Shown here one piece after another: positions 24,466 through 60,495 of a DNA stretch of 64,000 bases. Below the pieces are notes generated by a model that was given only the letters and a program-made list of their open reading frames with translations, was not told where the DNA came from and did not search any database. Position 1 is the first letter of the stretch. The number at the start of each line of letters is the position of its first letter. Origin of the DNA: Haplodiscus bocki (lineage: Eukaryota); NCBI GenBank assembly GCA_965655095.1, contig OZ296648.1, positions 6,076,001 through 6,140,000 on the forward strand, written 5' to 3'. A program made the position numbers and the translations under genes.

Positions 24466-24632
24466 AGTAGTAAGGAAGGGGGGGGGGTTAAATGCAATTT
24501 TTGACTCCCAAGCCGAAAATTTTCTAAGTCAAAGAGTTCAAAGTACAAATTCAACCGAAACTGTATTTTGTTGACTAAGTACACAGTAAGTAAACCAACT
24601 GTCAAAATTCGTTGACAGTGTAACTTTTCTAA
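24466..24632 (+). repeat. Left TIR of Polinton 1
   Basis: Reverse complement of ~38566-38734. The first ~80 bp are near-perfect, then imperfect. Confidence 0.92.
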
Positions 24633-25120
24633 ATCAAATTGTGAAAGTGGTTCTACGACACATGAAATCTTCAAACTTTGGAGACTTTTCGCTTTCTAGA
24701 GTAGAAATAATGCACCGAGCCCCCTGCTTATCAGGAGTTAACAATGCAAAACTCACCTTTCGAGGAATGAAGCAGCAACATTGTAAAATAAATTTCACTA
24801 GAGTTTCTGGTAATTGTCAAATTCAGTCCCAACTCGAGATGGAAAACTTAGGAAAAACGTTACCAGCAGTATCTAGTTCAAAAACATTACAGTTTGCTAG
24901 CACACCTGGCGCACTCACGTGGTTCAGCTGATTGAAGCATTGCATAAAGGATCGTGACTGTGCCAAGTCTGCTTTTCTTCCATGTTGATGGAAAATCCTA
25001 GTGACTGGACGGAAAATTCCAAACATTGAAGTGAGTTAGATAACGAAAACTCTGGGGCCGCTCATTTTCAGGCAAATTCAACCAACAATCAGTTGCTTTT
25101 AATTTTAACAGTTAAAACCA

Positions 25121-34033: not shown

Positions 34034-37000
34034 TTACTGAACCAGGAACTTACTAGATGAATGCAACGATTCAAGTGCTCGTTGCAGAAAACCACGAGGC
34101 TCCGTTGTTGAATCGTTTTCGCTAGACGAGCTAGAAGCTAAACTTGTTGATGCTATTGAGGAGGAAGATGCTGTCGTGCACGATCCACTGTCAAGCGGCA
34201 ACGAATCGTTGGTAGTCGAAAAATCTAGAACCAAAACAGAGTTCAAAACCTGTTGGGGTAGGAAAGCTAACTGTGAGATAAATTTTGTAGAACAAAAAAA
34301 TAGACCTGGATTTTGATCTGTAGCTTCGACAACAGGTGTAGAAATTTTGTAATGCCCATATGCCAAAGATGAGACTCCGTTTTCAAGCAGGAACCGTTTA
34401 TCGTCGAATGAGCTGATTGCCACTTTATCAATTTCGTTGACCTTTATTTGATGACAGTGTGAGCGCAATTGTGTCATCGTTTTGATTACTTCTTTCTTTG
34501 AGAAAAAGCAGTTCCTAAATAAGTCGTGATTCAAAGTTTTTCTGACTGACTTTTGAACGCTTTTAGCGCTCTGCTTCTTCCCACCTACATAATCAATACT
34601 GTAAGAGTTTTGACCGTAGACAAACGACTTCACGCAGAACTTTACCTTGCAACTCGTCTGTCATCGTTAATGGTACTTTCTTATTTGTTGGATCATGCAA
34701 AATGTGTTCTTGCGGGTAATCCGAAAGGTCCAGTAGATGTTTGAAGGAAGCCATATCATTGTACAGATCGGGCGTTTCAATCAAATACAGGAGCGAATCA
34801 GTGTCTTCATGCTACTTTCAATTGACTGGACGAGTAACGAGGTACCATTTCCTCAATGGAATTTGTACAGTGATAATTTTGACAAGTCGAGAATAGAAGC
34901 ACCCACGGGGGTTGGTTTAGTCCATACCACAGACGAATTTTTGAACGACACGCAGACCAAATCCTGTCTTATAATTTGGAAAGATTTGAACGTTGCTCTC
35001 TGAGCGAAGGCTTCGGCTTGTTGAGGATTTGACACAAACTTTACTTTAGATCGCTTTCTCAAATTTTCCATCGTTTTTCCAAAACAAGCATTACTCATCA
35101 ACTTTCTCAAAATCATTCGTAGCCTGCTTCCGCATAACAGTATTTTTTTCAATGTAGACGCCCAACCATTTGCTTTGCTGAAATTCGCAAACACGATGCA
35201 ATTTTTCGACTATCAACCCGTGTTTGAAATAAAACTTGAGATTTTCATAATGACACACATAATTCTTTTTATCTAAAAGGGTTTCAATCAGCTTGGGAGT
35301 TTTGTTGGGTATAATGCCAAAAGTCTGTGCAAATGGTGAAAGCCATGAGGATCTTATACGTCGCTTCTCAGGAGCAAGTGGAAGTCCATTGTGAAGGTCG
35401 TGGAGATGTTGAGGATATTTGAGGTCCACTTCGACAAAATACCCTATTTTAGAACTTTCTGGAGTTTCCAAAATTTGTTTGACAGTTGTTTCTGAGTTCC
35501 ATCTGTAGTTTCCCCGAGGCATCATTTTTTGCATTGTGCCGGCATAGAGAGATGTTACATCATAAAATGCGCCGAATGTTGTTTTCTGACTTGGATCGAA
35601 TGTGTTGAGATGGGATTGTTCGCAGTAAAATGCCGCAACTCACCAACTCCATTGATGCCACGCTCAAAAAACAAAAGCATATCAACATCTTCCAGAAGTC
35701 CCAATTTCACTCTTGTCGAGATGAGCATAGACTCCCAACTCAAATTTGGAGCAGAGTGAAAGTGAGCGGGATCGAGCTGGTAAACGTTCAAGCAGACACT
35801 TCGAAACTTCTCAAATATATCAGCCAAAAGAAGCACATCAGTTTTTAGATAGACGTCGTGGTAGTCTCCCAAACTTTTGCAACCGAATTTTTTGTAGATG
35901 TCAAGTGCATGTTGATAATCTTGTAAGGTAATATCAACTTTACCAGTGAGGCTGTTTTTCCAAGAGTCACCGAAATCTGGTAAAGGCTCTTCAAATTTTG
36001 CGAAGCTGTCGAGGAAACTGTAAGGAAAGAAACCTTTTTGTGTTAGTTTACAGAACAAATGGTCCGGAATGTTCCAAAAAAATTCCTTGAGTAATAAGAA
36101 GTCGCCGGTTTTGAGTGTCTTCGCAAGATTGTCCAAACTTTGGGATACAAACTGGTAACTATCCAGGAAGCGCACGGATTGAAAGAGCTTTACAGTTTTC
36201 CCAGATTTCTTCGTGTATGAACCCACAGGCATATTGACACTGAAGGAAATGAAAGTTTCGTCGGTTTTGGCAATTGCGGAGAGTTCTTCGGATACTTTGA
36301 GCTTTAGCTGTTTCAGAATATGATGCGCATCGTATCTTGACAGATTATGGGAAAAGACAGGTAAAAAAATTGTAGTTCTGGCTCTCAAATTGCATTTTGA
36401 ATGAGCCACCCCAAAAAGTGTTCCAGAAAGATGACAATGGTGGATGACTCTTGCTGCTCTTTCAACGTCTTTAGCACATATACAACATAAAACAGTAGAA
36501 ACGTTTCGCATTCGCTGTTGCTGGGATATTCTCAAGAGTCTAAAAGCCTGCTTTTCGTTATAGCACCATAAGACCCAATCACGCAACGTGTCCAATAACT
36601 TTGCGATACAATCTTCTCCTCTGTAAAAACTCTGCTTAGCAATTCCATTGGCTAAAACAAAAACAGGAAATGAACATGAAGAAAGTGCTTTCTCCTGTAG
36701 CTGGTAGAAACGTTTAAACGAAAGATGTATTAAACTAGTATTTCGATAAAATAACTAACTTCTAGAATCAATGAGGACTGCTCCGAAACTAGCAGTTGTG
36801 ATACTGTCGTTCAATTTCTCTTGTCCGGCTTTTCACTCTCAGAATCTGTGTCGACGCAACATTCATTGCTTCGAGATCAGCATATACAACAAAAGGACAT
36901 TTCTGCGTTTTTCCCAACTAGCAAACTCGACAGATGGCGACTCGATAGGTATTCGAATCTCGAGTGGGGCGTTGCTCTCGCAAAAAAGTGCATGTTTGTG

Positions 37001-38188
37001 AAATTTGGTTTAACTATCGGTTGAAAGCAGTTTCGGCAAAATCGTGATTTTGGCCCTTTGTTTTGCTTCGATTTCGAGCGACAGAGAAAATGAATCAAAT
37101 TTGAGATGTTTTTTATCAAATAATAGTGACTATTTTTGTTCTCCAGTAAGCGCAGAAGGTCAATTTTGTGCCGTCCTTTTCGGTTCTTACTGTGATACAC
37201 TGACACAAGCCTGGAGTTCTCCAATTGATAAACATTGATTCAGCAGCGATTCCGCTTTTCAAACATAGGAATGGCGGACAGCGGCATTGGCATTAACTTC
37301 GGGTTGAAAGATAATCGTTCAATTTTTTTTTGTGAATCTTCGGACTATGAGGTCGCCCAACGAAAGAAAAAATTGCCGCTGCAATACAATAAAGGAAGCA
37401 AAAATTATCTCTCTTATTGACTACATTCAAAATGGAAATTTTCAAGGGTTTGAGGGTTGATGGTGTTTCTATATAAGAGCCCCCAGTGACATTGCCACAA
37501 GCAGCAGTTTTTATCTCCAGCTGTTTCATTGTTTCCACGACCCAACCTGAACCACCAGTGGCGAACACAATTCAATTGTGTCATCAATGCGTCAATGTGT
37601 TGCATATATTCGTCTTCAGTGAGCTCACAGGCAGTTCTACACATTGGCGAATTGACGAAAGCCTCAACGGCTTCACCTTCCATAGGCTTTTCCAGCCTGA
37701 CAGCGATGCTCATCCCAAGTTTCAAATTCGTAGTTTCTCTCAATAACGAGTTCACAAAAGATATAATTTTTTTCCCGCACGAGAATAAGGTAGTTGAACG
37801 GCTCCAAAACACTACTGTCATCCAACTTTAGTCAATGAATTCTAAATTTTGAATTCACTGCTTCTGTTGTGAAATCTAGCAAATCGGAGAAATCAACTTT
37901 CGCAGTGGAAGAAGATATATCGTTGTGATACTGCTCCTGATGATCAGTCAATGATTTCAACGCTCCAAAGTACGTGGGACAAGAGAAACAACGATAACTA
38001 CTGCCTGACTTGTGTTGGCTCCTGAGATGGCGCAATAAATTGCAAGATTTTGTGAAGGAAACCTCGCAGTGACCACATTTGAAAATTTTCGCAGAAACAT
38101 TCTCTTGGCAATTGTGTTTCTTTCGCTTGTGATCATTCAGAGCACGTTTTGAGCTCAATAATTTGTCACATTGATCACATGGAAACAT
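34034..38188 (-). pseudogene. Polinton 1 protein-primed family B DNA polymerase with N-terminal C2H2 zinc fingers (intron-containing, many frameshifts)
   Basis: 3x C2H2, GSGW, DNFCFLY, HHCHLSG...AHSKCNL, HNLSRYDAH, YLKTDVLLLADIFE, DVTSLY, KLMSNACFGK, DTDS and DDKR. Confidence 0.93.
36652..36759 (-). other. Predicted 108-nt GT-AG intron in Polinton 1 pPolB
   Basis: GTTAGT...TGTTTTAG, phase 1. Removal gives GAVLIDSR-T-NGIAKQSFYRGEDCIAKL. Confidence 0.8.
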
Positions 38189-38565
38189 TTTAGGGAGGTC
38201 TCGGAGAAAGAACTTGAAAAAGTCGTGGTCTCACTTGGAAAAGTAACAATTTTGCAAAAAAAAAAACGAGAAACGCACAAAAAAATTCTTGTTTTTTAGT
38301 TTCACTGGACCACGACTTTTTACCCTGCTGGTTCACGTTTTTCCAATAACGTTGAGTTTTCAACAGTACAATAACGTTAATATGCCTAACAGTAGATTTT
38401 TTGAAAGTTGGCCGTTGAAACGTTTGAGAAATTAAATTTATAAAATTCTTCGTTTTCGGCGCAATAGTTAAGAAAACGGGTTATCAGAATGAAACTGTCA
38501 AAATGACAGCTAATAATCAGTTTTTGTTGTTTTTGTTCAGTTTTGGTACCCTACACTGAAACCAA

Positions 38566-38734
38566 CTTAGAAAGATTAAATGGTAGAAGAATTTTGACAG
38601 TTGGATTGCTAACTGTCAAAATAGTCAACAAAATTCAGTTGAGGTTGATCTTGTACTTTGAACTCTTTGACTTAGAAAGTTTTCGGCTTGGGAGTCAAAA
38701 ATTGCATTTAACCCCCCCCCCCTTCCTTACTACT
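38566..38734 (-). repeat. Right TIR of Polinton 1
   Basis: Ends ...ccttccttactact, followed by the TSD tctatt. Confidence 0.92.
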
Positions 38735-39441: not shown

Positions 39442-39989
39442 TGGTACGACATTTTGCGACCTCGTCCGAAATAAGGAATTCCGTGCTACATTTAAAAAAG
39501 TTATTTTTTTTTCAAAAGGCAGCAAAGCAGCGTGAGAGCACAAGAGTGACAGTACTGGTGAGAGCGCGCAAATCAAGAAAAGTTGATTTTTTTTTGTTCC
39601 AAGTCAATATACATTCAAAAGTGTAAAACCTGCGAACTTTTGAATTCATTTATCGCAATGCGCGGAAACAAGGATTATGGTCATCCCTAAATATTGCCAC
39701 AGTCTTAACTACATTAGGCGGATATGTTTTCCTTTGAGAAGACAAATATCGATTTTTTTTGTGAAAGCCCCCTCTGTTGCTTATTTTTCGCCGTATATGA
39801 AATATACAAGAAAGATTATTCATTCAGTACAGTGTACAGTGGGGTCAATTTTTTTTCCAGTGCAAAATTGCCAACTCTTTTTATTCAAAAATAAATGACA
39901 GCGGTAGTGTTAGGACAACAGCGTTCTCAAGCAGTAGGTTTGGGGTTCGAGTCTCTGTCGTGCTAAATATTTTTACGATTTATCCCTAA

Positions 39990-40580
39990 CATTTTTCGAT
40001 ACCCGAATTTATTGAATTACTAAAGGATTCACCTACGAACTTTCTCGGGAGTGTGAGACAAAAAATTTTCGACGGAATATTTTGATACTCCCCCCTTCTT
40101 ATCCAAACTTTTTCGGTACCCGAAATTAATGCAACAGTAAAGGATTCCCTACGGAGATTTTCGGCACTGTGAGACAAAAAAATTTCGACGGAAAATCTTG
40201 ATACTCCCCTCCCCCCTCTTGTCCATAAACTTTTTCGCTACCGGAAATTAATGCAACAGTAAAGGATTCCCTACGGAGATTCTCGGCACTGTGAGACAAA
40301 AAAATTTCGACGGAAAATCTTGATACTCCCCTCCCCCCTCTTGTCCATAAACTTTTTCGCTACCGGAAATTGATGCAACAGTAAAGGATTCCCCTACGGA
40401 AATTTTCGGCACTGTGAGACAAAAAAATTTCGACGGAAAATCTTGATACTCCCCTCCCCCCTCTTATCCATAAACTTTTTCGCTACCGGAAATTTTCTGA
40501 AACACAGCACAGAAGGGTTCCTCTTCGAAATTTTTCGGTATTGTGAGACAAAACAATTTGGACGGAAAATCGTGATACCC
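39990..40580. repeat. ~122-bp satellite (~4.5 units) in ABCA intron 1
   Basis: Unit aaggattccctacgga...ggcactgtgagacaaaaaatttcgacggaaaatcttgatactcccc recurs near 40023, 40140, 40262, 40385 and 40513. Confidence 0.9.
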
Positions 40581-41089: not shown

Positions 41090-41641
41090 GGCAACGATTA
41101 ATTTCGAACAATCGAATTGGCTGGTCGGAGTCAATACCAAACTTTGTGATTTGTTGGACAAGGACACAAATTTGCAAGTGAAGTCGCCCATGCTCAGTTT
41201 AAGCAATAAACGGTATGTATTCTCAAAGTGGGACACTTTCAGTTTCAGCGTCTTTCTCTTCTACTGCATCGTGCTCTCAGAACTGCACCAGGACAAAATT
41301 CGCAGAACCGACGAGTTCCTCTGGTCTTTGGGAGTTTCATCTTTCGAGAAGATGGTTTCCTGGTACATTTCCATCATTCTTCAAGCCATGTTGTGGTCTG
41401 CCATTAATTTTGTGCAGTTCGCACCCCAAATTTTGGACTTCGAAACAAACATCGTGTTTTTGTGGTTTCTCTATTCCTTGGTTTTTTTCTCAACCGCAAT
41501 TTGGGCGTTTGTTACGTCCAAGTTTGTGAAAGGAACGCTGTCCTATATTCTGGCAGTCATGCATATGCTACTTTTCTGGCTGTTCGTTGTTATCTATTTC
41601 TTCATTGCCGAGCAACCATTGCCCCAATCGAAAGCTTTGAG
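41090..41641 (+). CDS. ABCA transporter exon 2 (TMD1)
   Basis: Acceptor TTTACAG| and donor AG|GTTAGC. Several TM helices with an ABCA-like E...K....E.L..LGVS......SW segment. Confidence 0.85.
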
Positions 41642-41990
41642 GTTAGCTTGTTACTGTATTGTAATAGGTTAACTTTTCAACAATTTGAAAAGTGCATTTT
41701 TAGCATAAGAAAAGAAAAAATTCATTTTTACAACAGGAAGTGTAAGGTAATCAGTATCATTAATTTAACGCAACAACGAAGGGCGTACCAGACAGAAGTG
41801 AACGCTCATTAATACACCTTTGAAGAGAGCTCTAATTCATTTTTCAGAAAATCATAGTTGTTGAGAACTTTATCTGTCAATTTCTCTAAAGCAAAATTTC
41901 TTCCATATAAAGCCTAATTCGCAGAATATTTATGCGATGTTCGTATGTATCATACGTATCACATCGTTTATAAACAACACCTTGTTTCAG

Positions 41991-44317: not shown

Positions 44318-44642
44318 GTAAAGATGTTCTGTATGCCTTGTCGCTGATTAATTTTGAACTTAGTTCTGGGAAAGAAGTGACCTTAGTTTAGCAAATGATC
44401 GAAAAACAAAATCCGTTGTTAGATTGTCTATACTTCGAAATGTTCCCATTGATCATGCTAATTTATTTGGAGATGGAGAAAATTAATATTTTTTTCATTG
44501 AAGTAGAATTCACCTCTGATTTTTATTTTCCATTGAGCAAGTGTTACATTTTCAAAATTTTGAGCTGGGAATTGTTCAACAGCGCAAGTTGTGTTCAAGG
44601 TTTTGTGAAATTGAAAGTAATGAATTGCACTCTTTTCTACAG

Positions 44643-45786: not shown

Positions 45787-45897
45787 AGTAGTAAGGTTAG
45801 GGTGGGGGGTGTTCGCACCGTATATGGCTCCCAATAAATTTTCTCTATCTTGACAGCTAAATATACAGAAATATCGCCTGCAAACATTCAACTAACA
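45787..45897 (+). repeat. Left TIR of Polinton 2
   Basis: Reverse complement of ~60389-60495 with a few mismatches and one indel. Confidence 0.92.
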
Positions 45898-46274
45898 TGT
45901 TTGACAGCTCATTCAACAGTATGTAAACTTTCCCTAGTTTCTACCAAAATCGACCCTACGTTCTCAAATTATCCTAAGATGAACGTTCTACTGTCTCTTC
46001 AAACTCTTTGAATGCTCTGTTCCCCAATTCAGTTTCATCATCCAAATTTGATCAGATTTCTAATACCACGGACCTCATTCCATTAATAAAGACTATACAT
46101 ATAGTGATTTTGAAACAGAAAAGGTACACAGTGCAGGGTTTCCTGGCAAAATTACTTTCATGAAAAACGAATCCACGTTTTCGATATTTGAAAAATCTTG
46201 CTGAAAAATTCCATTGAAAAGTGCGTTCAAAATGCCCACTTTCCATAGTTTTTACACCTAAATTAGATGTAATA

Positions 46275-49200
46275 ATGGTTAAGGATCAGATAGCCAGCCA
46301 GGAAACTTTGCCATCTGAGGAAATGTTGAATTGCACATTCTGTGCGAAGCTCTTCACGAACAAAAAGCTTTTAAATTGGCACATTCGACGTGTGCATAAA
46401 ACAGAACCAAATGAGTCTATTCGGTCATTCAGCTGTGGTCACTGCGAAACAAAATTCACGCAAGTGAAGAACGTACTTCGCCATTTGAGGCAGCAGCACA
46501 ATTACTCGCAAAACTATCGCTGTCAGGAATGTGCACGTGTATTTGGTACGAACGCTTCGCTTCAAGAACATTCAACGGAAAATCATGCAACCTTTTCATC
46601 ACAACAATCAGCAACAAATCCCGGCGATTGGGGAATTCCCGCGCTAGTGACCACCAGTTCTGCAATAAATTCATATTTCAACGTTCATCGTTTCGACTTC
46701 ACTTCCCAAACAGTGGACCCATTTGCCTTTCTAATTGGACCTATCGGAGAGCTAATTTCTTTCATCAACGATAAACTATCTAATGTACACATGACTCGCG
46801 TCGGGCTGTGCATGCAAGTGAAAATGGTGAAACCATTAACAGGAGAGACTACCGAGCCTTTCTTTAACACAGTCCTTTTATCTTTGGCTCAAGTTGTTAC
46901 GGAGGACGACGTCTACAATCTCATTGATCAAATAATTAGTCAGCTCAATATATTTAGCACTGGTGGTTCGGGTTGGATTGTGGAGAAACTATTACAATTT
47001 GATATCAAAACAAGCAAAACTCCTCGACTTGGTGGAAGTTCCTATATACCAACACCGCCAGATCTCTGTGCCCGGATTTCACGGCACTGCCTTTTAAACA
47101 TTCGTAATTTGTATGACAACTATTGCTTTTTATACTCAGTAGCAGCTGCACTGTTTCCAGCTGAAAAAAATCGTCAGCGACCCAGGAACTATATTGACAA
47201 ATTCCAGCAATTCATTTTCGACCCGGCCGCAATGCCAATGAAACTTGTGAATATGCCGAAGTTTGAACGCGACAACAATTTGTCAATAAATGTGTACAGT
47301 TACGAAGATGGTTCTCTATCTTGTTGTTATCTGACGAAAAACAAGACTGCCGCTGGCAAAATTAAACTGCTGCTGTTAACAGAGGAAAACAACTCCCATT
47401 ACTGCTTAATCACTAATTTTCAAACATTCATCCATCGGGTGTGTCGCTCGAAAAAGAAGGCAGAAAAAGGGCCAAAAACAAAATTTTGCAGCAACTGCAT
47501 GCACTTTGTGATCAAATCTGAATACAGTAGGCACGTAAAGTTTTGCAAAACTAACAGACCGCTGGATATTTCAATGCCCTCAAATGGTTCTAAAATTCAA
47601 TTCTCAAATTGGCAAAAAACACAAAAATGCTTGTTCGTGGTATACGCAGACTTGGAGGCAATTAATGTTGCTGTAAACGAACCTCAAACTTCGAAGAACA
47701 CCAAAAACATTGAGCGGCAGTATCGAGCAAGTTATGGAGCTGTGTTGGTAAATTCGAAAAGTAAGTTCCACTTGAATACCATTTTTTGGTTTCTCAAAAG
47801 CCCATCTTACATTTCTAATTTTTTTTAGCCAATAAATTTCAGTTCGAGTCGTTTTACCTTGGGCAGGACTGTATCGAAAAGCTGATTAGTTGCCTTCGAA
47901 AATGGTTGGGGTGGAGTGAAAGTCAGCAACAAAATTATCGAAAGCTTTCATCAGTCATGTCCTGGAGTGAACGGCAGCAGCTTTTGTCAACAGAAAACCC
48001 AATTTGCTGTTTGTGCCAGGAACACGTTAGCCACAAAAAAGAAATGGTTATTCATCATTGTCACTATTCTGGTCAAGTTTACGGGATCGCGCATTCTAGA
48101 TGTAACCTAAAGGCCCGTCGCTCTAATTTTCTGCCCGTATTCTTTCACAACCTTGCACGTTACGACGCGCACCACATCTTCAAAAATTTGCAACTCGCAG
48201 CCAATGAAAAGCTCTCTGCCATTTCAATCCAGAACTGATGAAACGTTTACTTCCTTCAGTATATCGGTAAAATTTGGTGAATACAAAAATAAATTCAACG
48301 TGAAAGTGCCTCTTTACAGCCACATTCGTTTTCTCGACAGTTTTCAATTCATGTCACAGGGTTTGGACAACTTGGCGAAAACCCTGCATCATGAAAACTT
48401 CAAACTCTCACGAGAAGCATTCGGCAACTTGAATGATGACGATTTCATCAGTGTCACTCGAAAAGGCTTCTTTCCATATAATTATCTGGACAGTTTTCAA
48501 AAATTTAGTGCACCGTTTCCAGCTTTTGGCCCCGATTGGAAAAACACGCTGTCGGGGAAAATTGAAATTAGTGAAAAAAACTACACGCAAGCTTTAGCAA
48601 TGTATAATTTGTTTGCTTGTAAAGACTTTGGAGATTACCACGATCTGTATTTACGAATCGACGTCTTCATACTAGCTGATGTATTTGAAACGTTCAGGAA
48701 CGTATGTCTTAAGGTTTACAATTTGGATCCTGCTCATTTCTTCTCAGCACCGAATCTCAGCTGGGATGCAATGTTGATTACAACTAGGGCAGAGATTGGG
48801 TTATTGACAGACATTGAAATGTTGCTCTTTTGTGAAAGGGCAATTAGGGGTGGTGTCAATGGCATCGGAGCTTTGCGACACTTCAAAGCCAACAATCCCG
48901 ACAATGATTACAATGCAAATGAACCTACAGTGTATGGAGCATTTTTCGATGTCACCTCGTTGTATGCCGGAACTATGCAACAGTCTTTGCCACTGGGAGC
49001 CTACACCTGGAGAGCAGATTTGACCATTGATGATATTCTGAACGCTGACCCAATGGGTGAATTTGGTTTCTTTGTAGAAGTGGACTTAATTTATCCGAAA
49101 GAGCTCCATCACTCTCACAATGATCTTCCCCTTGCGCCGGAAAAATTGGCAATTCAACCAGAATGGTTATCACTATATGCCAAGTCATTCAACATTCCAC

Positions 49201-50216
49201 CTTCTGCTGTAGAAAAATTGGTAGAAACGCTATTTGACAAAAGACTCTATGTGTGTCATTTCCGTAATTTGCAATTCTACCATCAGCAGGGACTCAAGGT
49301 TGATAAACTGCATAGGGTCCTACAATTCAAGCAGAGCAATTGGCTAGGCACGTACATAAACAAAAACACTGTGATGCGAACACAAGCAACAAATGAATTT
49401 GAGAAAAACTTTTACAAATTGATGTCCAATGCTTGTTTTGGCAAAACTATGGAGAATCTTCGAAACCGAAGACTCATCAACTTTGTGCAAAATGAAACAC
49501 AGGCCAACAGTCTCAGTTTTAAGCCAAACTTCAAGTCGTTCAACATTATTAATGCGAATTTGGTATCGGTCGTAATGAACAACACCAAAATTTTGTGGAA
49601 TAAGCCAACACCTGTAGGTGCGGCCATATTGGCCCTCTCCAAGTTGACACTGTATGGATTCCATTATAAGGAGATGAAACCTCGATATGGAAATTCAATC
49701 ACCGTTGTTTATAAAGATACAGACTCCCTCCTATATCGCGTGGAAACAAACAACCTCTATTCTGATATGGGCAACTTAAAGCACCTTTTTGATCTGTCTG
49801 ATTATCCAACCAGTCATCCCTTGTTCGATGCTTCTAATAAGAAGGTGCCCCTTACCATGACTGATGAATTGCAGGGAAAAGTGTTAGAAGTGGTGTGCTT
49901 GCGATCGAAACTTTACAGCATAAAGTTCAACGGTGGAGTCAAACAAAGTGCCAGGGGCGTTCAGAAAAGTGTAAAGAAGTCTCTTCATCATGAAGCCTAC
50001 CGTGAATGCTTGTTCAATAAAACAACAATGCAGAAAGAAATGACCCAATTGCGTTCTGAAAATCATCAGATTATCGTCAATAGACTGAGCAAAGTTGCCC
50101 TCAACGCGTTTGACGGCACACGATATCTCTTGGGGGATGGAATCCAATCTGCTGCATATGGCCATGTGCAGCTAATTCAATTTCGTGGTATATTTCAACT
50201 CCTTTCTAAGCGTTAA
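46275..50216 (+). pseudogene. Polinton 2 protein-primed DNA polymerase B with 3x C2H2 fingers (one intron, one frameshift near 48230)
   Basis: GSGW, DNYCFLY, VYADLEA, HHCHYSG...AHSRCNL, FHNLARYD, DVTSLY, KLMSNACFGK and YKDTDS. Confidence 0.95.
47761..47828 (+). other. Predicted 68-nt GT-AG intron in Polinton 2 pPolB
   Basis: GTAAGT...CTAAT TTTTTTTAG, phase 1. Removal gives GAVLVNSK-T-NKFQFESFYLGQDCIEKL, in frame with ORF 47906-48238. Confidence 0.85.
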
Positions 50217-50565
50217 AGCTTGTTTTTCTCATAGTCACCATTTAATAAAAAGTTGTTTTTTTTGTAGAGGTGCCGTCGTTCGAAAATGATAGTGGTGACG
50301 ATGATAACAGCACCATTACATCTAACTGTAACGTTGTTGATAAAGAATCTACCGCCTCTTGTTCTTCCTCCAATTCTGAATACTGATGACGAAGATAAGT
50401 TTTCATCTACATGTACTGCTACGTTTTCATTATCTGCTGATGATCACGCACCTAATAATGGTCAACAGCCTACTACTTCGACGGCAATTTGGTTGCCCAC
50501 CACCACCTCCATTCGTTCTGTATTTAGTTGGTAACGTTTTATCATGTTAAGAGTCCATGTAATAT

Positions 50566-50808
50566 TTGGGATGGTTATTTGAATGTTTCGCTGCTGGTCC
50601 AATTGATCCCGGGTTCATCTCCCGATCTGACAATGAATGTTCTACTGCTGATATTGTTGATTGGGACAACTTGATCGATGATAATATGGAGACCGAAATC
50701 GAAAAAGCGTCCTATAGGAAAACGCGTTGTCCCTTTATAGATGACAAAGCTGTCGAGAGTGAGGGTGGCGGTGGCGATGATGATGATGATAATGAAAACT
50801 TTCAATGA
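50566..50808 (+). CDS. Polinton 2 acidic ORF or terminal exon downstream of pPolB
   Basis: DPGF...DIVDWDNL...PFIDDKAVES, homologous to 33669-33944. Confidence 0.55.
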   Translation: MGWLFECFAAGPIDPGFISRSDNECSTADIVDWDNLIDDNMETEIEKASYRKTRCPFIDDKAVESEGGGGDDDDDNENFQ

Positions 50809-50953
50809 TTTTGACCACAACCAACCTGCGTTTCGCCTACCAACAATCAATTAAGCTTCTCTAGTTATGCTCAGAATAGAGAAATAAAAAATAGCCAGCC
50901 TGATGATTTCATTTTTTTAATTCATTCTAAGTTGTCAAAATACCATATAGTAT

Positions 50954-51646
50954 TTAAATGAGTTTATACTTCAGTTCCAATTTACAGTGAGTATTAAAAA
51001 AGCGCACTACATCAATTTCATGTATTTGCCTCAAGGGCTGCAAAAGAGTATTCAGAGTAAGGTAATCAATCTCTTCCTTCTCCTCAACTGAAATGCACTG
51101 GTGGCTGGAGGATGTGAAGCTAATAAAATGTTGCAGAACATTCTTTTCAATTAAATAATGGGCCATATAGAGACAATGCAAACCGCACAAGTTTGAGGTG
51201 GGAGTTTGAATGGGTAAGCCAATTTGATAAAGCTCCAGCATTTGTGTCGAATGCAAAAAAAACTTCAAGCGTTTAAAAAAGTGCGTATATTGTCTGATAG
51301 GCATACCCATGCAATCCCACACAAGCACCACGCTCTTGTGTTCAATTTATTTATAGCCTTGTTTTAATCCTTGTTGTTGTGGGTACTGATCATTATTTTT
51401 AGTAGTCTTCATGGGCACTGCTGCAACAATCAATAAAATCCAGTGCCGCCCCACGTCATTCGACCGGGCACTGTTTACAATTTGAAATTGGAAAATCATA
51501 CTGTCACATAGGTTAGGATGATTATTGTGGTGGCCAGCACTACTGGTCCCGAGATGAAAGTTATCTGCTGACCACACACCACCAAATTTGGTCCACAATG
51601 CCGGACAGTAGTCTCTGGCCATTGCATCCAAAGTAATGTTATCCAT
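50954..51646 (-). pseudogene. Polinton 2 adenain-like cysteine protease (disrupted)
   Basis: FGGVWSADNF, IVNS...GRHW, VWDCMG and IQ...SNLCGLHC in two ORF pieces. Confidence 0.88.
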
Positions 51647-53001
51647 TTATAATTGAGTTTTTCGAAATGTTGCGATGCGAATCAATGTAAATTTGACTGA
51701 ATCGTTCGCCAATGAGAAATAATTCGACTGCCGTAGTCAAAGCTGCGTCAAATGCAAGTTTGAGTGTGATTCCGGCTCCAGTCAATTCAGGAAAAAGTGT
51801 AAAAGACTTGCTGGCCTCCCGCGTAGAAGTTAGATCAAACACAAGTATGAAGCGATCGTCTTCAAAATCTTGCATCAAAATTCCATTGCCACTCCTGTTG
51901 AAGCCCAATGCTGATATTGTGTTGTAATATAAACGTGTACCGTTGCCGGTATCTATTGGTGTACCGGCAATGGGAACACCGTTGCCGCGTTGAATTTCAA
52001 CCTTTTGTAGGCCAAATTTGCCGTACGAAAGGGCGTTGAGGCTATCGTAGTTCCGCGAAAATGACTATTTCTCACCATACACATTGTCAAGCGGCGAATA
52101 GGCTCGGTGCCGAAAATGTTTTCCTTGACGAAGCAATTTTGCCCAGCTTGAATGATAAAACTCTTGTTTAGGTTTTCAATATACGGGTACACAGCTGGGC
52201 TCTTTGACAACGCTCGCTTAATGCTCATTTTCACGGAGTCGGAAAGCACAACCTTGTTCACAACGAGGCCTTTTCAATAACAACACTATAGGGTGTCTGG
52301 TCTGCAGCCTTAATAGCATCTGCGTCCAGGGTCCCAACTGCTTCAAGCGAACAATTGCTCGGTGCTCTGTAGAGACGCAAGTGAAGTGTCACACCTGGCA
52401 GCAGGAATCGCTCACATTCGAAAAAATCCACGTGCGGCGCACCGTACAAACTAATATTGTAGTTGCCTCTCTTCGTGAAGGCATCTATGATTTTGTCTTT
52501 TTGTTCCGCATACTGCTTGGCGTCACCCCTGTACCTGTAGCCTTGACACTGGGCCCAAGTCTGTTTGCCTTCAGTGTCTGAGGTCAATTCAGTTTCTACA
52601 AACGCTGCATGGTGGTAGTTGTTGTTGCTGCTCGAAATTAGTTTGCCATTCAAAAATAGCTCGACATGCGAAAATAGTGAATGTAATAGATTGTTGCCAT
52701 AAATGAGTACTGGATCGGTTCCGGGCTTGACTAGTGTTTTACCATCGGGTGTGTACAATGAAACGTCCAAAGCAAGACAAATTCTATTAAGATCAATGCA
52801 GTTTTTATTCTCGGCAGTCACAAAAAAGTCCAACTGAGGTCCCCTACAGCCAACATGTGGAAAGACTTCTTGATCGTAAGCACCTTCATAATTAATTAGA
52901 ACGTGTGGTCGTTCAAAACAATCTAGCGCACTGTGGGTCACTGGGTTTGCAATTTCGGTTGATTTACTGTACATTGTTGTCGTCGGTGCTGTTGACGCCA
53001 T
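51639..53001 (-). pseudogene. Polinton 2 major capsid protein (two frameshifts)
   Basis: ORFs 52258-53001, 51953-52261 and 51639-51908 align end to end with the element-1 MCP (NNLLHSLFSHVELFLNG, VFDLTS, IDSHRNI). Confidence 0.9.
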
Positions 53002-53113
53002 TAGGTAGTCTTGTGTTTGTTAGTATGTTTGTGTTTGTGAATGTGTGTGTGTGTGTGCCTGTGTTTAGATTATGCTCCCCTCTGTATTTCCTCTTCTTTT
53101 TCACCTTCCTTTG

Positions 53114-53694
53114 TCAATTGTCAAAGTTTACTGTGGATAAAATGTCGGACCGACTTCTTTTGGCGGTGTTTCGCCTCGAAATGACCACATCATTAGCAGC
53201 CACTGGTGATTTTGCTTGCCCTCCTCCTACTCGTCCTCGCCGTCCAACACCACTACCCTTGGCATGTACCTGCGCGGCTTGCAACCCTGTCGTCCGCCCG
53301 CCGCCGCGCGCCCGCCCTCCGCCGTGCGAGCGTCCCGTCCGTTCGCTGCGACCGGTCCGTCGGCCGCCCGCGGCCGGCGACGCGGTCATGTTAGTCAGTG
53401 TTTTATTTACAGACTTTTTGAAGGACTCTTTAAGGCTGTTCTTGGTCGCTTGCGACTGGCCGACGTCGACGACACTAGTTCGGGTACAATGGATGTGAAC
53501 TTTTTACCAAGCTCTTTGGCCACAGGCACAACGTACTTTTTCACGACTGGCATGGCAACTCGACCCATTCGCATGGCAAATGCTCCAATTCCCCCGCCCG
53601 ATCCAAACTGTCGTGCCGGTCCTCCATAAACTCTTGCTCCTCCTCCTCGCATTGAAGACTGTTCAAGAATTTGATTGTCATAATGCGAATCCAT
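53114..53694 (-). pseudogene. Polinton 2 Arg/Gly-rich core protein (frameshifted)
   Basis: GPARQFGSGGGIGAFAMRMGRVAMP, RG-rich tract and C-terminal SDILS shared with element 1. Confidence 0.65.
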
Positions 53695-53889
53695 CTCACT
53701 GCCTTACTCGCTCCCTCTCAAGTTTGTTCAAGAATTGATAATTTTTCTTTCTTTCTCTCACCACCGCCACCACCTTGGCTCCAAGTGTGCACAACTGATT
53801 TTCAAAATGCTTTTTAAATAATGCTGACAAAACCTTTGTACGAAAGAAAGAGAGAGAGAAAATTGGCAGACAACCATTTCAGTGGCGCA

Positions 53890-54900
53890 TCATGCCAGTC
53901 GTTTTAGAAATTGTAAGGTGACGTTTGTCCTACCACGGCTCAAAAATGGTACTAGTTGGCCAATTTCGTTTCGTAGCGAGATTGAAATTGACTATACCGT
54001 AGTCTTGACGATGCGTTTCCACTGTAGATTGGTAAACGTTTGATAATGTAGGCTAGTGAAAACTGCCGGCTGATGATTAACACTGACCCTTGTTGACGAC
54101 GATTTACCATCGTATGGTTGATTTTGACGGTGAAAAGTTGGTAGTGGAATGGCCCTCAGCAATGCAGTTTGGCAGTCGCCCAAAATCTCATTTTGCACCA
54201 GGTCGCAATAGATCAGTATTGTGTGACATCCAGCATTCAATTCTGTGGGATACTGACCAGCACTTTTTGTTTGGAAAGCATCATGTCCACCGCCACCATT
54301 GCCATTTTCACTACGGTCTTTCACATTTGATAGGCTGCTGCTGCTGCAATCGACTAGCGTTGTCATACCCAAAATGTTTTGCAAATCGGCCGACTGCGAT
54401 TTGAGGATTAGGCGGTCATCGTTACTTCCACTAAATTTGACTCGTAGTGTTTGTGTTTGAGCATCAATTTTCCAAGAGATTGGGAATTGCTTGCTGCTGC
54501 TGGCCAACTTGTTGCGAAATACTTGCTTGCATATTGAATCCATTATAAGATCAATGCTCGAGTAGATTCCGTGTTTTATATTTTCTAAAGCTGGCGGCGC
54601 AAATGTTTCGCCCGAGTACTTATTCGACGTGTACATTGTAACCATTCCGGGACGGCGATGCCGTGGTGGTGGCCGTGCATCTTCTTCTTGGCAATTTATA
54701 AATTGGTAGGAAAAGTTTCCTTGAAGAACATTTTGTACAAGGCTCGGCCAAGACATTTCCACAATTGCCACCTCCCAATCGCCCATCAGTTGTGTTGGAT
54801 GTGGCAGCAGAGTGGTAAAGTTCGCGAGAGTGTTGTCGGGAAACGTGGACATGGACGCGTTTGAAACTAAATTTATAGTAAATTGCTCCTGTTGAGACAT
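53890..54900 (-). pseudogene. Polinton 2 minor capsid protein (frameshift near C-terminus)
   Basis: FTINLVSNASMSTFPDN...WEVAIVEMSWP and IYCDLVQNEILGD..TALLRAIP. The final ISISLRNE.GQLVPF..GRT is in another frame. Confidence 0.87.
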
Positions 54901-54902
54901 TT

Positions 54903-54919
54903 GTGGGTGTGTGTGTGTT

Positions 54920-54957
<38 letters not shown>
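54903..54957. repeat. (TG)n microsatellite inside Polinton 2
   Basis: Interrupted TG run directly upstream of the penton ATG. Confidence 0.95.
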
Positions 54958-54960
<3 letters not shown>

Positions 54961-54987
54961 TTGCAAATCTATTGAAGACGACAGCGA

Positions 54988-56223
54988 CTAGTGTTGTGGG
55001 GATTCACAGTTGTTGTTGTTGTTAATGTGCTTAAAGTGAACCAATTCGGGTTCGTAAAATTTGCCTTTGATAACTTGTTTGTTGCAATCGCTTATAGAAT
55101 ACGTTGGAGGGTTGAGTGTCTGGATGGCCGCAATGGTGAAAACTTCTTCGGTAAATTGTATGCGATAGCCACGATGAAAAGTGTCAATTTTTCGTCTGAT
55201 TCTGACCTTTTGGCCAATTTTAAATTTTGGTTCTTGTACCTTGTTAGTTGCTTGTAGTGATATCAAGAATAGTACGTCTTTAAGATCCACATTTTTGGGA
55301 GCAATATGTGTAACACGATTTATTCTACCATTGATTATGCTGACAAAGTTTGGTAGTTGATCCAAGTAAATGTCGGTATTGTTTTCATGAAGGTACTTGA
55401 ATACTAATGCCTTAAGCGAACGGATATTGCGCTCTGCGAAGACCGACTTTGTTTCACTGCAAGTTGAATAGATTGTCATGGAGCGTTCTCGGCAATAATC
55501 GGCAAACTCCCCAGCGAATTCTCAACCCTTATCTACCCAAATCTTTTCCGGTTTAGTGGGTACTTTTTCCTTCCCGCGACAAAATTTGGGTTGCATCTGC
55601 TGCCTGCCAGCTTGGCAACATGTAATAATTGAGTTTAGAGCATCAGCGCACGACTTTGCACTTTTGCCTTTGATCGGATATACGCAGAGAAACCTACTCA
55701 ACGTGTCTACGGCCACAAAGAGGTATCTAACACCATCATTCGCGCGTGACAATTTTTGCATATCCGCCAAATCAACAGACCAAATTTCATTCAATCGAAA
55801 GCTTTGCACCTTGAGTCTAATGAAACGCCTTCTCGTTTGTTTAAATTTGGTATATGTTTCGCTACTGGCTAACTACTTGTCAACGTCACTGTAGCTGCAG
55901 CGCGATACTGTTTTCAACGATTGGCGACTACCAAAGGCCGCGGGGTTGTCACAATTTGTGTATATGCTATGTAGTTTGCTAAATGTTACCGTGTCTTTGT
56001 TTGCAGGCACAAGTCTTCTCGTGTGTGAACATTTGGTACATAAAAAGTCTTTTCTCGTACGATAATCGACAACATTTACCAAGCCGCTGCAAGAAAAATG
56101 TACCCAACCACAAACATGACACCAAGTAGATGGTTTTGTTCGAGAACCCTTCCCCAAGTCTTTCAAACAGCTACCGCATGTGTAGGTTGGTTTTTTATTT
56201 GGTGGTGCCTTCTTTTTGCGCAT
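54988..56223 (-). pseudogene. Polinton 2 integrase with N-terminal PHD finger (disrupted)
   Basis: CGSC...WCHVCGWVHFSCSGL...FLCTKC reads in frame into IYTN.DNPAAFGS, then WSVDLADM, IWVDKG, AERNIRSLK and GKFYEPEL. Confidence 0.92.
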
Positions 56224-56334
56224 ACTAGTGTCAATGGGATGTGTGTTGTTGTGCAGACTGAACAACTAGCTAGTGGCTTGTGTCTTATGAAAATGAATTG
56301 GAGTGTCTTGTTTGAGCGGATACTACACAATAAC

Positions 56335-57060
56335 CTAGTACATCTTGAACCATTTGTACTGGTCTGTAGTAGTGTCGTCGGGTGCACTACGTTTCATGTC
56401 GTTTGCAACTTGCTTTGCATTGGTGTTTGTCATTAGGTATTCGGGTAACCTCAACTGACGAACAAGGTCGAGACAACCTTCACTTAGCCTCTTAGTTGGT
56501 ACTTGCAAGTCGGACAGGAATGCAAAAATTGTCAAACCAGTGTCTCTGTCATAGAGGTGCAGCCTTCCTGAATTTGAGTCAATGGTTACTGAATCACTGA
56601 CTTGTATTTTGCGAAGTATTTGACGAGCTCGTTCCACTTTTCCAGCACTCAATCCACAAGCTAAAAGTTCTAAGATCACGTCTGCTGAATTGTTGCGACC
56701 CCGATCAGCACCGTCATTATGTTCATTGGAAGACGAGAAGGAAAATGGTGGCATGTCTTTCAATTCTGCCCTTTTTTTGTTTGCCTCAAATCTTGTCTGA
56801 AGGTTCAGGTGAGTCACCGCCGCAGATGTACCCGCAGCAATATTCTCGTTTGTTTTCAAGTCAAAATCTAGGATTGAGCCATTTTGAGATGATGTCAAGT
56901 GTGTTGGTGAGGACTGCTGTTGTTGTACTAAACTGGTGCACTGATTGTGTGGCGATGCTGTAAGGACGATGTTATGGATGTGTTGTTTAGTTACCAATAG
57001 TGATGTGTATTCATCTCGAGTTATCAACACAAATTCTTTCACGCTACTGCTTGAGCTCAT
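56335..57060 (-). CDS. Polinton 2 conserved hypothetical protein (241 aa)
   Basis: Intact ORF, syntenic and homologous to 27864-28566. Confidence 0.78.
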   Translation of the reverse strand: MSSSSSVKEFVLITRDEYTSLLVTKQHIHNIVLTASPHNQCTSLVQQQQSSPTHLTSSQNGSILDFDLKTNENIAAGTSAAVTHLNLQTRFEANKKRAELKDMPPFSFSSSNEHNDGADRGRNNSADVILELLACGLSAGKVERARQILRKIQVSDSVTIDSNSGRLHLYDRDTGLTIFAFLSDLQVPTKRLSEGCLDLVRQLRLPEYLMTNTNAKQVANDMKRSAPDDTTTDQYKWFKMY

Positions 57061-57345
57061 GGCGCTTCTTTAAATATTTGAAATTGACGGTTGGATTAAT
57101 ACCAAAAGCTTCAAGCCTTCATCTGACAAAAGTAGCCGACGTTTGAGGGCTATTTTTATACCCCTTCGGTACAAGCGCTCTATTAGCCTTTTATTTCGAT
57201 CAAGTTTTCTTTGTAACGCTACTGTCCATTTTTACATGACCGTGTACTACGTTGAAAATGCAATCACAGAAAAATTTAATGTCATTGTTTGGACAATATG
57301 AAAGGAAGCTCTTCTTTACAATTGGTTTGAATGAATGGAACAAAT
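57060..57345 (-). pseudogene. Polinton 2 small basic protein (frameshifted)
   Basis: Manual translation PIVKKSFLSYCPNNDIKFFCDCIFNVVHGHV...LKRRLLLSDEGLKLL matches 27572-27880. Confidence 0.65.
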
Positions 57346-57369
57346 CAAGCTTATAATAGTCTCGTAGAC

Positions 57370-58044
57370 TCATTTTGTAGTTTCTGACGTTTTGCTGGTT
57401 GCTATGAAAAAGGATGATGGTCCTGCGCCAGAACAGTTGGTTGAAAATTTTAGTTTTGGGTCTGCTCGCGAATCCAAGTCAATCAACAATTGACCATAAG
57501 GTTTGAGTGTGGCTTTTTTATATGTCTCCAGCAAAAGCTTTCTTTGACCCATTTGCCTACCGAGAGTCGATATTTGCTCAACATCCCTCGGACTGTTGAA
57601 GAGAATCAGCTGACTAATCTTTAAATCAATTGTTTTAGAGTTTTTGGTTTGGTGATAGAGATTGTGCTTCATTGTAATCAAATGAACATTTCGATGGCGT
57701 CCCGAAACTACCAACTCGAGAAATTTTTCGTCTTGACTGGCCTGTTGATAAAGGTCATCGATGACAACCATTGTCCGTAGCTTTTGGGCTTCACACTTGT
57801 CAATAGCTGACCAGTTTATTCCCTGGTAAAACTCAATTGAATTCTTTTCGCCCATCATTCTAATATTCAGGGACTCATATTTCGGTTGAAAATGGTTATA
57901 AAAGTACAAAAATTTATCGAATGGCGGTTTGAAAACATTCCTTTGATTGACCAACATCTCTGCAACCAGTTGCGTTTTGCCACAGCCAGTCGGCCCCACA
58001 ATGGAGATGAAACAGTGTGGTTCGGTATCAATGCGTTTGTTCAT
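57370..58044 (-). CDS. Polinton 2 packaging ATPase
   Basis: GPTGCGKT, VVIDD, GRHRN and FNSPRD. Confidence 0.93.
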   Translation of the reverse strand: MNKRIDTEPHCFISIVGPTGCGKTQLVAEMLVNQRNVFKPPFDKFLYFYNHFQPKYESLNIRMMGEKNSIEFYQGINWSAIDKCEAQKLRTMVVIDDLYQQASQDEKFLELVVSGRHRNVHLITMKHNLYHQTKNSKTIDLKISQLILFNSPRDVEQISTLGRQMGQRKLLLETYKKATLKPYGQLLIDLDSRADPKLKFSTNCSGAGPSSFFIATSKTSETTK

Positions 58045-58319
58045 TGCCTAGTTGATGGGGGAGGAATAATGTAGCCGACGCTCGCTGAAAGAATAGCAAG
58101 TACACCTGACGATGTACTTGTGTTTGCCGGAGCAAGAATCAAGTAACCGATGCAAAACAGAATTACAGCGAAAATGGTTGAATAATGTAAGAGTAGGAAA
58201 GTAAACGCTCTATCACACAGTAATTGTTTTGTGGAACAACCACAACCGAGAACAAATGGCGGTTTCTCATTATTAGTGTCATCAAATATCAGTTCTCTGA
58301 CATTGGGGCCATCAGCCAA
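58041..58319 (-). CDS. Polinton 2 small two-TM protein
   Basis: LIFD...PPF...FC...LAILSASVGYIIPPP, homologous to 26516-26872. Confidence 0.75.
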   Translation of the reverse strand: MADGPNVRELIFDDTNNEKPPFVLGCGCSTKQLLCDRAFTFLLLHYSTIFAVILFCIGYLILAPANTSTSSGVLAILSASVGYIIPPPSTRQ

Positions 58320-58534
58320 ATCTAACGTAGTTTCTCGAATAGTTGATTCGGAAACGATAGAGGAATCACCATCATTTGTAATTGCAACTTTGGTAAATGT
58401 TTATTGTATGCAAATAAGTATTTAGGAAATGAATAACTTGATGGAAACCAAAGGTATATGTTGAAAGTGGAATCGCGACTCTAATTTGGGCAGAGCGTGC
58501 GACTGACATTGAGATTGATTTTTAAAGAAAATGG

Positions 58535-58999
58535 TTAGAAGCTATACTTCCGATACTCTTTGTTTGAAAAAAGTCTCAATGGAAACCAATACACCAGCCC
58601 AGTCAAATGACCCAGTAGCATGCTGTTAACAAAGATGGGCTTTTGTGACAACGCATAGACATAACCGGGCCCAATGTCATAATTGCTTTTCATAAAACCA
58701 AATGCGTCGTGAAATATGGCATGCAAACGCAACAATATAAAACGGTTCAAAAATTTGTCTAAACGGCTGTTGCCCGGTCCAATAAGACCACCATATATTG
58801 CCAATTCATTAATTTCGTGAAGACTGATGTCTTTGTTTAGACTATAGCACACTGCTAAGAATGCATTTTTTCGTCGTGTGTTTTTCGGAAAAGTATAGTT
58901 GACATGGTTGAAATTATTCTCCACAGCTTCACTACTTAGAAGGTGATGATGATGCATTCTATCTGTGTCTCTCGCAAGGAAAAACCAACTGATTATCAA
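58535..58999 (-). CDS. Polinton 2 phospholipase A2-like protein
   Basis: YGGLIGPGNSRL...HAIFHDAF, plus FPKNT..KNAFLAVC and GPGYVY shared with element 1. Confidence 0.6.
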   Translation of the reverse strand: MIISWFFLARDTDRMHHHHLLSSEAVENNFNHVNYTFPKNTRRKNAFLAVCYSLNKDISLHEINELAIYGGLIGPGNSRLDKFLNRFILLRLHAIFHDAFGFMKSNYDIGPGYVYALSQKPIFVNSMLLGHLTGLVYWFPLRLFSNKEYRKYSF

Positions 59000-59009
59000 G
59001 AAAAAGTCT

Positions 59010-59887
59010 ATTCAGATGGCTGGATAAATTGAGCATTTTCATCAATATATGAAAACAAATTTGTCTGATAATTGTTCATTGTGTTTCCTTAATTTGGCAA
59101 ATCGAGGCATTCAAAGCACTGGCACTGATCGTTGGAGTAGCCCAAGTCGATTGACAGCGTGTTATTATGATGTGATGCGTTGATGTTGCCAAAACCACGC
59201 TTCAACAGGTCAATGAAGTCAATCACGGAATCTTTGAAGGGTGCATCAGAGCGTTGCAGCTCCACCAGCTTTTTGCTAAGATAGCTCAGTTTTTCCAGAT
59301 CAACATCATCGTCAAACTCTGTAACTGGTACGATGGAACTCCCATGTTAGATTGAATTTACATTCCAGTCCGTTAGTTGTTGCGGCATTCATCATTTCCT
59401 TGACCTTTTCACCATGAATGAAAGAGGTTGTTTGTTGACAATGTAACTTCAGTTTTGAAGCAAATCTCGGGGTAAGTGATTGCATAGAGCTTAGCTACGC
59501 AGTTTTTGATTTTGAATATTTTGTCTTTTTCGGTGAGAATATCCCCAATTGTTTCTTTGATGAACTTTTCTGCTCCGACAAAAGACTTTAGATGTAGCAG
59601 AATGTGATAGTGATCGTTTTGTATTTGAGAGCATCGTCTTATGTTCCACCAATCTTGCTGACTGTGTGTTTTCTCACCGTATATTCACGACTTGTCGCCC
59701 TAAGCAGTTGTTTCAAAAAGCTCCATAGACTTTTGGGGAATATATTTTCGCTCTGATCTTGACATTTTTTCTTCGATACTCTAGGAGCAGGTGGCTGAGA
59801 AACATCATCAGCTGCGACTATCTCTTCGTGTGTGTAGAAGACAAGGTATTGAAAGTGAGAAGGAACTTCACGGAAGACGCTTGTCAT
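59010..59887 (-). pseudogene. Polinton 2 orphan protein (disrupted homologue of 25121-25972)
   Basis: MTSVFREVPSHF at the N-terminus; LVELQRSDAPFKDSVIDFIDLL and CQCFECL further downstream. Confidence 0.72.
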
Positions 59888-60388
59888 GGCGAAGGTTAGA
59901 CATATTATGACCAACGTCTAAAGCGAGATATCTTTATCTTATCGTTGTTACGTGAGTAGAATTTTCCTTAATTACGTGTTCGGACGTTTCCGTTGTTATG
60001 GTTTTTCCACTGTAAATGTACTTCTAGCACAGACCGTCCGTTGAAAAGTCGCGAGGTGGCTTCGAGTTGCAACTGTTGCGTTCGTATACGATGTTCGGAC
60101 GGTTTGTGCCAGAAGGACATTGGAGCGAAGTCAGAATTAGACTCTTTGTTTTATTCTAACTTATAAAGAATGCCATTCTTCGTGTTTTACAAACTGTTAC
60201 CTCCTTATGACTTTACTTGGTTACTCTACCTTCTTATTATGGCCAACATATTGATGGAAATGGAAATAAAGGTTAGACGTATCAAATTGAATTTTTGAAA
60301 AAAAATTGATTTTTTTTTCATTTTTGGAATACATGGAAGCCCTATCTATACACTGAGGTCTTCATGTGTGGTAAAGGGTGAAGCAACG

Positions 60389-60495
60389 TGTTAGTTGAAC
60401 GTTTGCAGGCGATATTTCTGTTTATTTAACTGTCAAGATAGAGAAAATTTATTGGGAGCCATCTACGGTGCGAACACCCCCCTATCCTTACTACT
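60389..60495 (-). repeat. Right TIR of Polinton 2
   Basis: Ends ...cctatccttactact, followed by the TSD ggtacc. Confidence 0.92.

Follow-up and report, generated by a model that had tools for sequence, protein, structure and literature searches.

Two whole Polinton/Maverick elements, A and B, lie in the window analyzed here, a 64,000-nucleotide stretch of Haplodiscus bocki DNA, and both are decayed. Each carries genes for a protein-primed DNA polymerase (pPolB, PF03175), a packaging ATPase (PF04665) and an RVE integrase (PF00665, below the cut-off, E 5e-6), and also encodes look-alikes of a double jelly-roll capsid protein and a Ulp1/C48 protease (look-alike scores 0.95-0.97, leads without alignment). 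The elements share with animal Polintons/Mavericks of the adintovirus type a length of 14-16 kb, AGT-type terminal inverted repeats (TIRs) and a 6-bp target duplication, as well as the gene set of pPolB, RVE integrase, packaging ATPase, double jelly-roll capsid and Ulp1-like protease. The features discussed below are the following.

24466..38734, no strand assigned: Polinton/Maverick element A, terminal inverted repeats starting with AGTAGT, 6-bp target duplication TCTATT
34034..36651, minus strand: pPolB exon 2 of element A, rest of the exonuclease with an HNH-like insert, and polymerase (PF03175, PF02945), frame-broken
36652..36759, minus strand: predicted intron of element A pPolB (family I3), 108 nt, phase-1 GT-AG, GTTAGT...TTTTAG
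36760..38188, minus strand: pPolB exon 1 of element A, frame-broken
36870..36887, minus strand: VYADLE, the Exo I motif in exon 1 of element A, read from the sequence upstream of the intron
45787..60495, no strand assigned: Polinton/Maverick element B, terminal inverted repeats starting with AGTAGT, 6-bp target duplication GGTACC
46323..47760, plus strand: pPolB exon 1 of element B, open frame
47640..47657, plus strand: VYADLE, the Exo I motif in exon 1 of element B, read from the sequence upstream of the intron
47761..47828, plus strand: predicted intron of element B pPolB (family I1), 68 nt, phase-1 GT-AG, GTAAGT...TTTTAG
47829..50216, plus strand: pPolB exon 2 of element B, with a single change of frame near 48228

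Other parts of the window are repetitive or belong to the host. In positions 1-23000 a unit of 5.9-11 kb is present three times in near-identical form and includes a fragmentary frame for an endonuclease-reverse transcriptase (PF14529); this is either a recent tandem duplication or a LINE array. Five degenerate tandem repeats of ~122 nt (39980-40578) separate element A from a host ABCA transporter gene, and a unit related to them occurs at 61560-61631. The ABCA gene (41142-45544 and 63207-63752, plus strand) spans element B, which apparently sits inside one of its introns. Two GT-AG introns of this gene lie at about 41643-41990 and 44318-44642. At both places a relative, P0227 (73% across the stretch queried), is uninterrupted, pointing to gain or loss of introns in a host gene as well.

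In both elements, as the preliminary description had reported, pPolB is interrupted after GAVL(I/V)xS(R/K) by a phase-1 GT-AG segment, and the exons join as A|CC. Element A reads GAVLIDSR and a further A before the intron, and CC followed by NGIAKQSFYRGEDCIAKL after it; the corresponding parts of element B are GAVLVNSK and A, and CC followed by NKFQFESFYLGQDCIEKL. The two introns, which represent two families, differ in length and are unrelated in sequence (interior alignment p=0.057), also as first described. The FYxGxDC stretch restored at the junction had been called an exonuclease-region motif; this does not hold, as it is not an Exo motif, and Exo I (VYADLE) is found upstream, in exon 1. 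Exon 1 encodes C2H2 fingers, a terminal-protein-like (TP-like) part, a viral OTU-like (vOTU-like) part, a Zn finger and the first two exonuclease strands, in a domain order taken from the model of an intronless relative. The C2H2 fingers are N-terminal and precede the terminal-protein part. An HNH/endonuclease VII-like zinc module (PF02945) is present in all families inside the exonuclease, ~50 residues downstream of the intron (47970-48120, plus strand, and 36380-36520, minus strand).

The pPolB gene of element A has at least four frame changes, one of them at about 36794-36800, just upstream of the donor. Since both window copies are frame-broken, neither would give a whole polymerase even when spliced. 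No intron was seen in the other core genes, which are collinear with those of an intronless element (four outside and two window elements compared), and in the gap between frames upstream of the ATPase small genes were seen and no further intron. Contigs from four sequence sets of one study, none on record as RNA, were compared with 33900-38700; among 15 of their 121 joints there is none at 36651/36760, but these contigs look like DNA and have no bearing on splicing.

The preliminary description had proposed a survey of related Polintons for the same intron, and we searched the 1.5-Gb host genome with the exon-2 piece of element B. The best 150 of 6,924 candidates were listed, and 130 of these were fetched, leaving aside partial matches, near duplicates, the row of element A itself and the nine lowest ranked. 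The scored set comprised 131 copies, with A and B of the window included, and its counts should not be read as copy numbers. Of the 131 copies, 96 have a phase-1 insert at this very codon, 34 have none and one (L017) was unscorable. Although these are decaying copies, 89 of the 96 inserts start with GT, 87 end with AG and 82 have both. Insert lengths range from 62 to 125 nt, typically 69-125 nt, and the inserts fall into seven families:

I0: 111/112 nt, n=27
I1 (holds element B): modal 69 nt, n=18
I2: 117/118 nt, n=16
I3 (holds element A): 108 nt, n=12
I4: 102 nt, n=11
I5: 108/111 nt, n=6
I6: 125 nt, n=6

Many of the modal lengths can be divided by three (69, 102, 108 and 108/111), with 111/112 and 117/118 tied and 125 not. 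Five I3 intron-region copies occur 3-5 kb apart within 18 kb (C7:39976446-39994453), forming a tandem array of a Polinton piece.

The copies without an insert form three families, N1-N3, which are continuous and collinear with the spliced reading. The spliced spacing is matched to the base in 31 of these 34 copies (the other three are off by -2, +3 and +8), and it also equals that of P0002-P0004, P0007, P0052 and P0068. The exact agreement in 31 copies fixes the intron boundaries without RNA. An I5 copy with the same 111-nt intron was found on an independent metagenome contig, L303; this outside contig and the 96 intron-bearing copies rule out an assembly artefact. A group I or group II self-splicing intron is ruled out by the length of 62-125 nt and by Rfam, which gave no match in seven loci, one per family. 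An introner origin is likewise rejected on the matches examined. The intron of A has at least 40 genome matches, of which all 30 fetched lie between the same exon ends, and that of B at least 27, with 27 of 27 in this position; as none of the 57 matches examined falls outside pPolB, these sequences do not constitute an introner family.

The splice signals are conserved across all seven families. Donors share +1G, +2T, +5G and +6T, in the pattern GT(A/T)(A/G)GT, and acceptors share a T-tract (-12T, -10T, -9T, -5T, -4T) and YAG. With the one pattern used, YTRAY, a branch-point-like sequence was seen near the acceptor in most copies of I1, I2, I5 and I6, and in none or almost none of I0, I3 and I4. 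Twelve host introns read by eye (two in the ABCA gene and ten in CCT genes) have the same type of signals, with GTTAG in 4 of 12. Between the signals the interiors are unrelated: only one of 21 family pairs scored p<0.05 against shuffles, which is the chance level, and even I5 and I6, with 82% protein identity, do not match. Identity at fourfold sites is 41-48% in the closest pairs and 23-36% in most others. Neutral sequence has thus been replaced, and the near-saturation of synonymous sites accounts for the unalignable interiors. Within families, indels are about tenfold denser in the intron (66 per 9,807 sites) than in the flanking exon (18 per 27,367), with homopolymer slippage contributing. 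Taken together, the DNA evidence points to a U2-type spliceosomal intron that is old and whose splice signals have been preserved by selection. The earlier view of an ancestral, selected intron stands in part: the intron is old, with splice signals kept in all seven families, but it is not ancestral to pPolB, as continuous outgroups show.

Substitution patterns indicate that purifying selection acts on both exons. Nonsynonymous change (pN) is far below synonymous change (pS) in exon 1, in its 43-codon exonuclease stub and in exon 2, as it is in an intronless pair; for I5-I6 the respective pS values are 0.59, 0.47 and 0.62 and the pN values 0.12, 0.16 and 0.08. The Asp and Glu of Exo I are the commonest letters in all seven intron families. 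Exon 2 has no shared start codon, its first ATG falling between -11 and +46 codons depending on the family.

Intron-bearing and intronless elements have both been mobile recently, as judged from two I5 copies at different sites that are 99.5% alike over 14.9 kb and from two N1 elements 99.4% alike over 16.2 kb. In the mobile intron-bearing family, I5, the unspliced frame stops three codons in. Comparison of an N1 element (C9:7095196-7111424) with an I5 element (C9:34873922-34888837) revealed 59-89% protein identity (75-78% DNA) on the capsid, ATPase and integrase side, whereas pPolB is only 49% identical, suggesting that polymerase and capsid modules have different histories. From the pPolB start to the terminal repeat, N1 has 2.2 kb with an opposite-strand 146-aa frame (C9:7095196-7097400 region), and I1 and I5 have 0.5-1 kb.

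The position of the intron in the protein was examined in an AlphaFold model (pLDDT 89) that covers residues 95-800 of a natural copy without the intron. From model residue 339 onward it matches the phi29 polymerase exonuclease (Z 15.9, rmsd 2.9, 199 aligned); the TP-like part matches the Pol IV little finger (Z 7.8), and the OTU-like part gave a weak match to OTUD1 (E 0.066). The junction falls at residue 382, past the Exo I strand, where a turn links strand 366-379 to strand 384-392. The intron thus lies 43 residues inside the exonuclease, in the turn between its strands 2 and 3, and not at the TP/vOTU boundary. At the two positions assigned by motif to the putative vOTU site, Cys and His predominate in each of the ten families.

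The trees built downstream and upstream of the junction agree with each other. I1 groups with N1-N3 (96/97; 98), and this group is sister to I0 and I2-I6 (100/99; 97); outside them lie the continuous P0003/P0004 group (alpha-clade) and then continuous distant pPolBs. The grouping of N1, N2 and N3 has support of just 85/82 and 88, and these LG+G4 trees, built without a mixture model, include long outgroup branches. A single clade of all intron bearers is not rejected by the AU test (p=0.138; tree of 30 rows, with 31 others left aside for speed or long branches), so a gain without loss is also compatible with the data. On these trees the intron was likely gained once, before the two sister groups of this acoel-associated clade diverged, and then lost exactly, a single time, in N1-N3. 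The nearest named relatives come from the acoel Convolutriloba macropyga, and in another acoel Mavericks make up 4.5% of the genome according to the part of that report considered here (PMC6451197).

Intact relatives that encode this segment as continuous protein, which the preliminary description had named as counter-evidence, were found in N1-N3 (for example the 1283-aa frame P0001) and in all distant pPolBs spanning the site; they count in part against the earlier interpretation. The P0003, P0004, P0012, P0052 and P0068 clusters span the site and are continuous. In the clusters of P0005, P0008, P0009 and P0010, from other assemblies, no listed member spans the junction, and the members reaching it start there, some within the 3' end of the intron. 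The P0010 cluster has a best host-genome match of just 73% and is likely to come from another host genome. P0002/P0122, a continuous pPolB on 4,944-nt Logan contigs, is nested inside the intron clade, as either a contig of spliced transcript or a second exact loss. Scans of IMG/VR gave one 20-residue match and then none, and this weak search found no free-virus relative.

We consider it unlikely, on balance, that the intron was gained two or more times at one hotspot or was passed between families by recombination. The best trees do place I1 apart from the other intron families, but base position and phase are identical in all seven, and most families have no AG|GT proto-splice site. The interiors cannot be aligned, which saturation explains, and all 57 intron matches examined are in pPolB, which gives no sign of an introner family. 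Elements do swap modules, as the N1/I5 comparison illustrates (59-89% for capsid and integrase, 49% for pPolB); sliding identity, however, detected no rise in the similarity of I1 to other intron families at the junction, and recombination there was accordingly set aside as a candidate. Less probable still is that the segment is not an intron, the gene being split into two proteins or carrying a coding insert that decay has disrupted. A coral Polinton is known to have its TP gene split (in the portion of bioRxiv 2024.03.18.585575 considered here), and several modal lengths (69, 102, 108, 111, 117) are divisible by three, but GT and AG stand at the exact collinear bases, exon 2 has no conserved start and the cut falls inside one beta-sheet. 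Moreover, 77 of 78 copies of six families, young near-identical ones included, have in-frame stops in the intron. Only in I1 do 5 of 18 copies read through in frame (6 of 20 in a second parse, of 27 matches), and retention in these stop-free copies would insert 22-23 residues in an exonuclease hairpin; a coding insert is therefore rejected except as a by-product in I1. The claim that unspliced RNA stops at the intron applies to both window copies, where in element A the in-frame TAG is the first full codon of the intron, and to those 77 copies of the six families, and fails for the open I1 copies.

In the Drosophila P element, retention of the third intron truncates a key enzyme, is tissue-regulated and yields a repressor. 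Regulated retention of this style, with an extra zinc-finger/TP/vOTU protein made from unspliced RNA or with splicing limited to the germline, appears improbable for pPolB. The likeness is that retention would truncate a key enzyme; the difference is that there is no sign of regulation here and that intronless sisters are active. A product ending at nearly one place would be expected from stops within five codons of the donor, which occur in 75 of 78 copies of the six families, but the donor sequence (A|GT TAG) and AT richness account for such stops, and the five open I1 copies lack them. The intron has outlasted synonymous saturation in seven families, and comparison of whole elements showed no other in their core genes, yet no conserved interior is available for a regulator to bind, and intronless families thrive. 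We give a similarly small probability to a host-splicing gate, in which retention would supply a zinc-finger/TP/vOTU primer pool or a dominant repressor, splicing would license replication in the germline or stem cells, and the intronless sisters would be escapers.

The protein context also speaks against retention as a source of primer, which the preliminary description had suggested in the form of an N-terminal half. With the intron in the strand 2/3 turn, 43 residues inside the exonuclease fold and away from the TP/vOTU boundary, unspliced RNA would yield fingers, TP and vOTU with an orphan two-strand stub of 43 residues, and no clean primer protein. The vOTU domain has been proposed to cut TP from the polyprotein in Polintons (Krupovic et al., bioRxiv 2024.03.18.585575, in the part considered), and as its Cys and His are kept here, this published route to free TP is available. 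The suggested switch between retention and splicing is not supported, and an intronless family transposed no less recently than one with the intron. The elements do not need the intron, nor does it disable them, and selection is on its correct removal and not on its presence.

The explanation that we consider probable is routine removal, by the host spliceosome, of a U2 intron that was gained once and has been inherited at one site since. The ancestor of these Polinton families would have gained it while integrated in a host that was probably an acoel. Host RNA polymerase II would transcribe pPolB in the nucleus, and the spliceosome would join the exons to encode a single TP-vOTU-Exo-Pol polyprotein, from which the vOTU domain may release TP in the way suggested for other Polintons. 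RNA left unspliced would for the most part be a dead end. In the N1-N3 branch the intron was likely removed cleanly, for example via a spliced cDNA, and mobility was retained. Polymerase made by intronless families might in principle serve intron-bearing copies, but selection on both exons argues against this.

The TP-vOTU-Exo-Pol order is that described by Krupovic et al. (bioRxiv 2024.03.18.585575), in the part of that work used here. Core genes of animal Polintons are described as intronless in the portions of the literature covered, whereas seven of the ten families here have an intron fixed in pPolB. Such descriptions concern intact vertebrate Mavericks and nematode Maverick core genes (PMC8097293; bioRxiv 2022.07.12.499685, both as excerpted), and include the 'no introns' of Kapitonov and Jurka 2006 as quoted in PMC8097293. 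Dinoflagellate introner-containing Maverick/Polinton-like elements (Gozashti and Corbett-Detig, bioRxiv 2025.03.18.643946) resemble the present case in having spliceosomal introns in integrated elements; from the sections considered, those introners are young copies of intron-generating transposons of the host, many per element and mostly post-integration, whereas here one old site is inherited by replicating families. Group I introns are reported in cryptophyte PLVs (excerpt of PMC12220804). In the adenovirus E2 unit, as outlined in the excerpt of PMC7851563, pTP and polymerase come from spliced RNAs, and adenovirus is a related nuclear DNA virus with pPolB that depends on host splicing. Adenovirus differs in having a separate TP gene and an inactive vOTU, whereas here TP is fused, the vOTU retains its Cys and His and it is the exonuclease core that the intron interrupts.

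In the portions of the literature covered, no inherited spliceosomal intron is described in an animal Polinton pPolB, although Pritham 2007 and Repbase may mention intron-bearing Polintons. What appears new, and is well supported by the sequence comparisons, is an old intron at a single fixed site that coexists with intronless sisters in a known element type. Gene callers return only the exon-2 piece of intron-bearing pPolB, and 7 of the 10 families here would score as broken in searches for intron-free Polinton frames. If an intron has been kept this long, the polymerase transcript would have to enter the host nucleus and meet the spliceosome in each cycle. This is relevant to the question of whether these elements replicate in the manner of nuclear elements or parasitize cytoplasmic viruses. 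Sisters with and without the intron, recently mobile in one host, offer a natural test of the cost and benefit of an intron, and the families provide a dated case in which a gene of a DNA virus gained an intron and likely lost it exactly.
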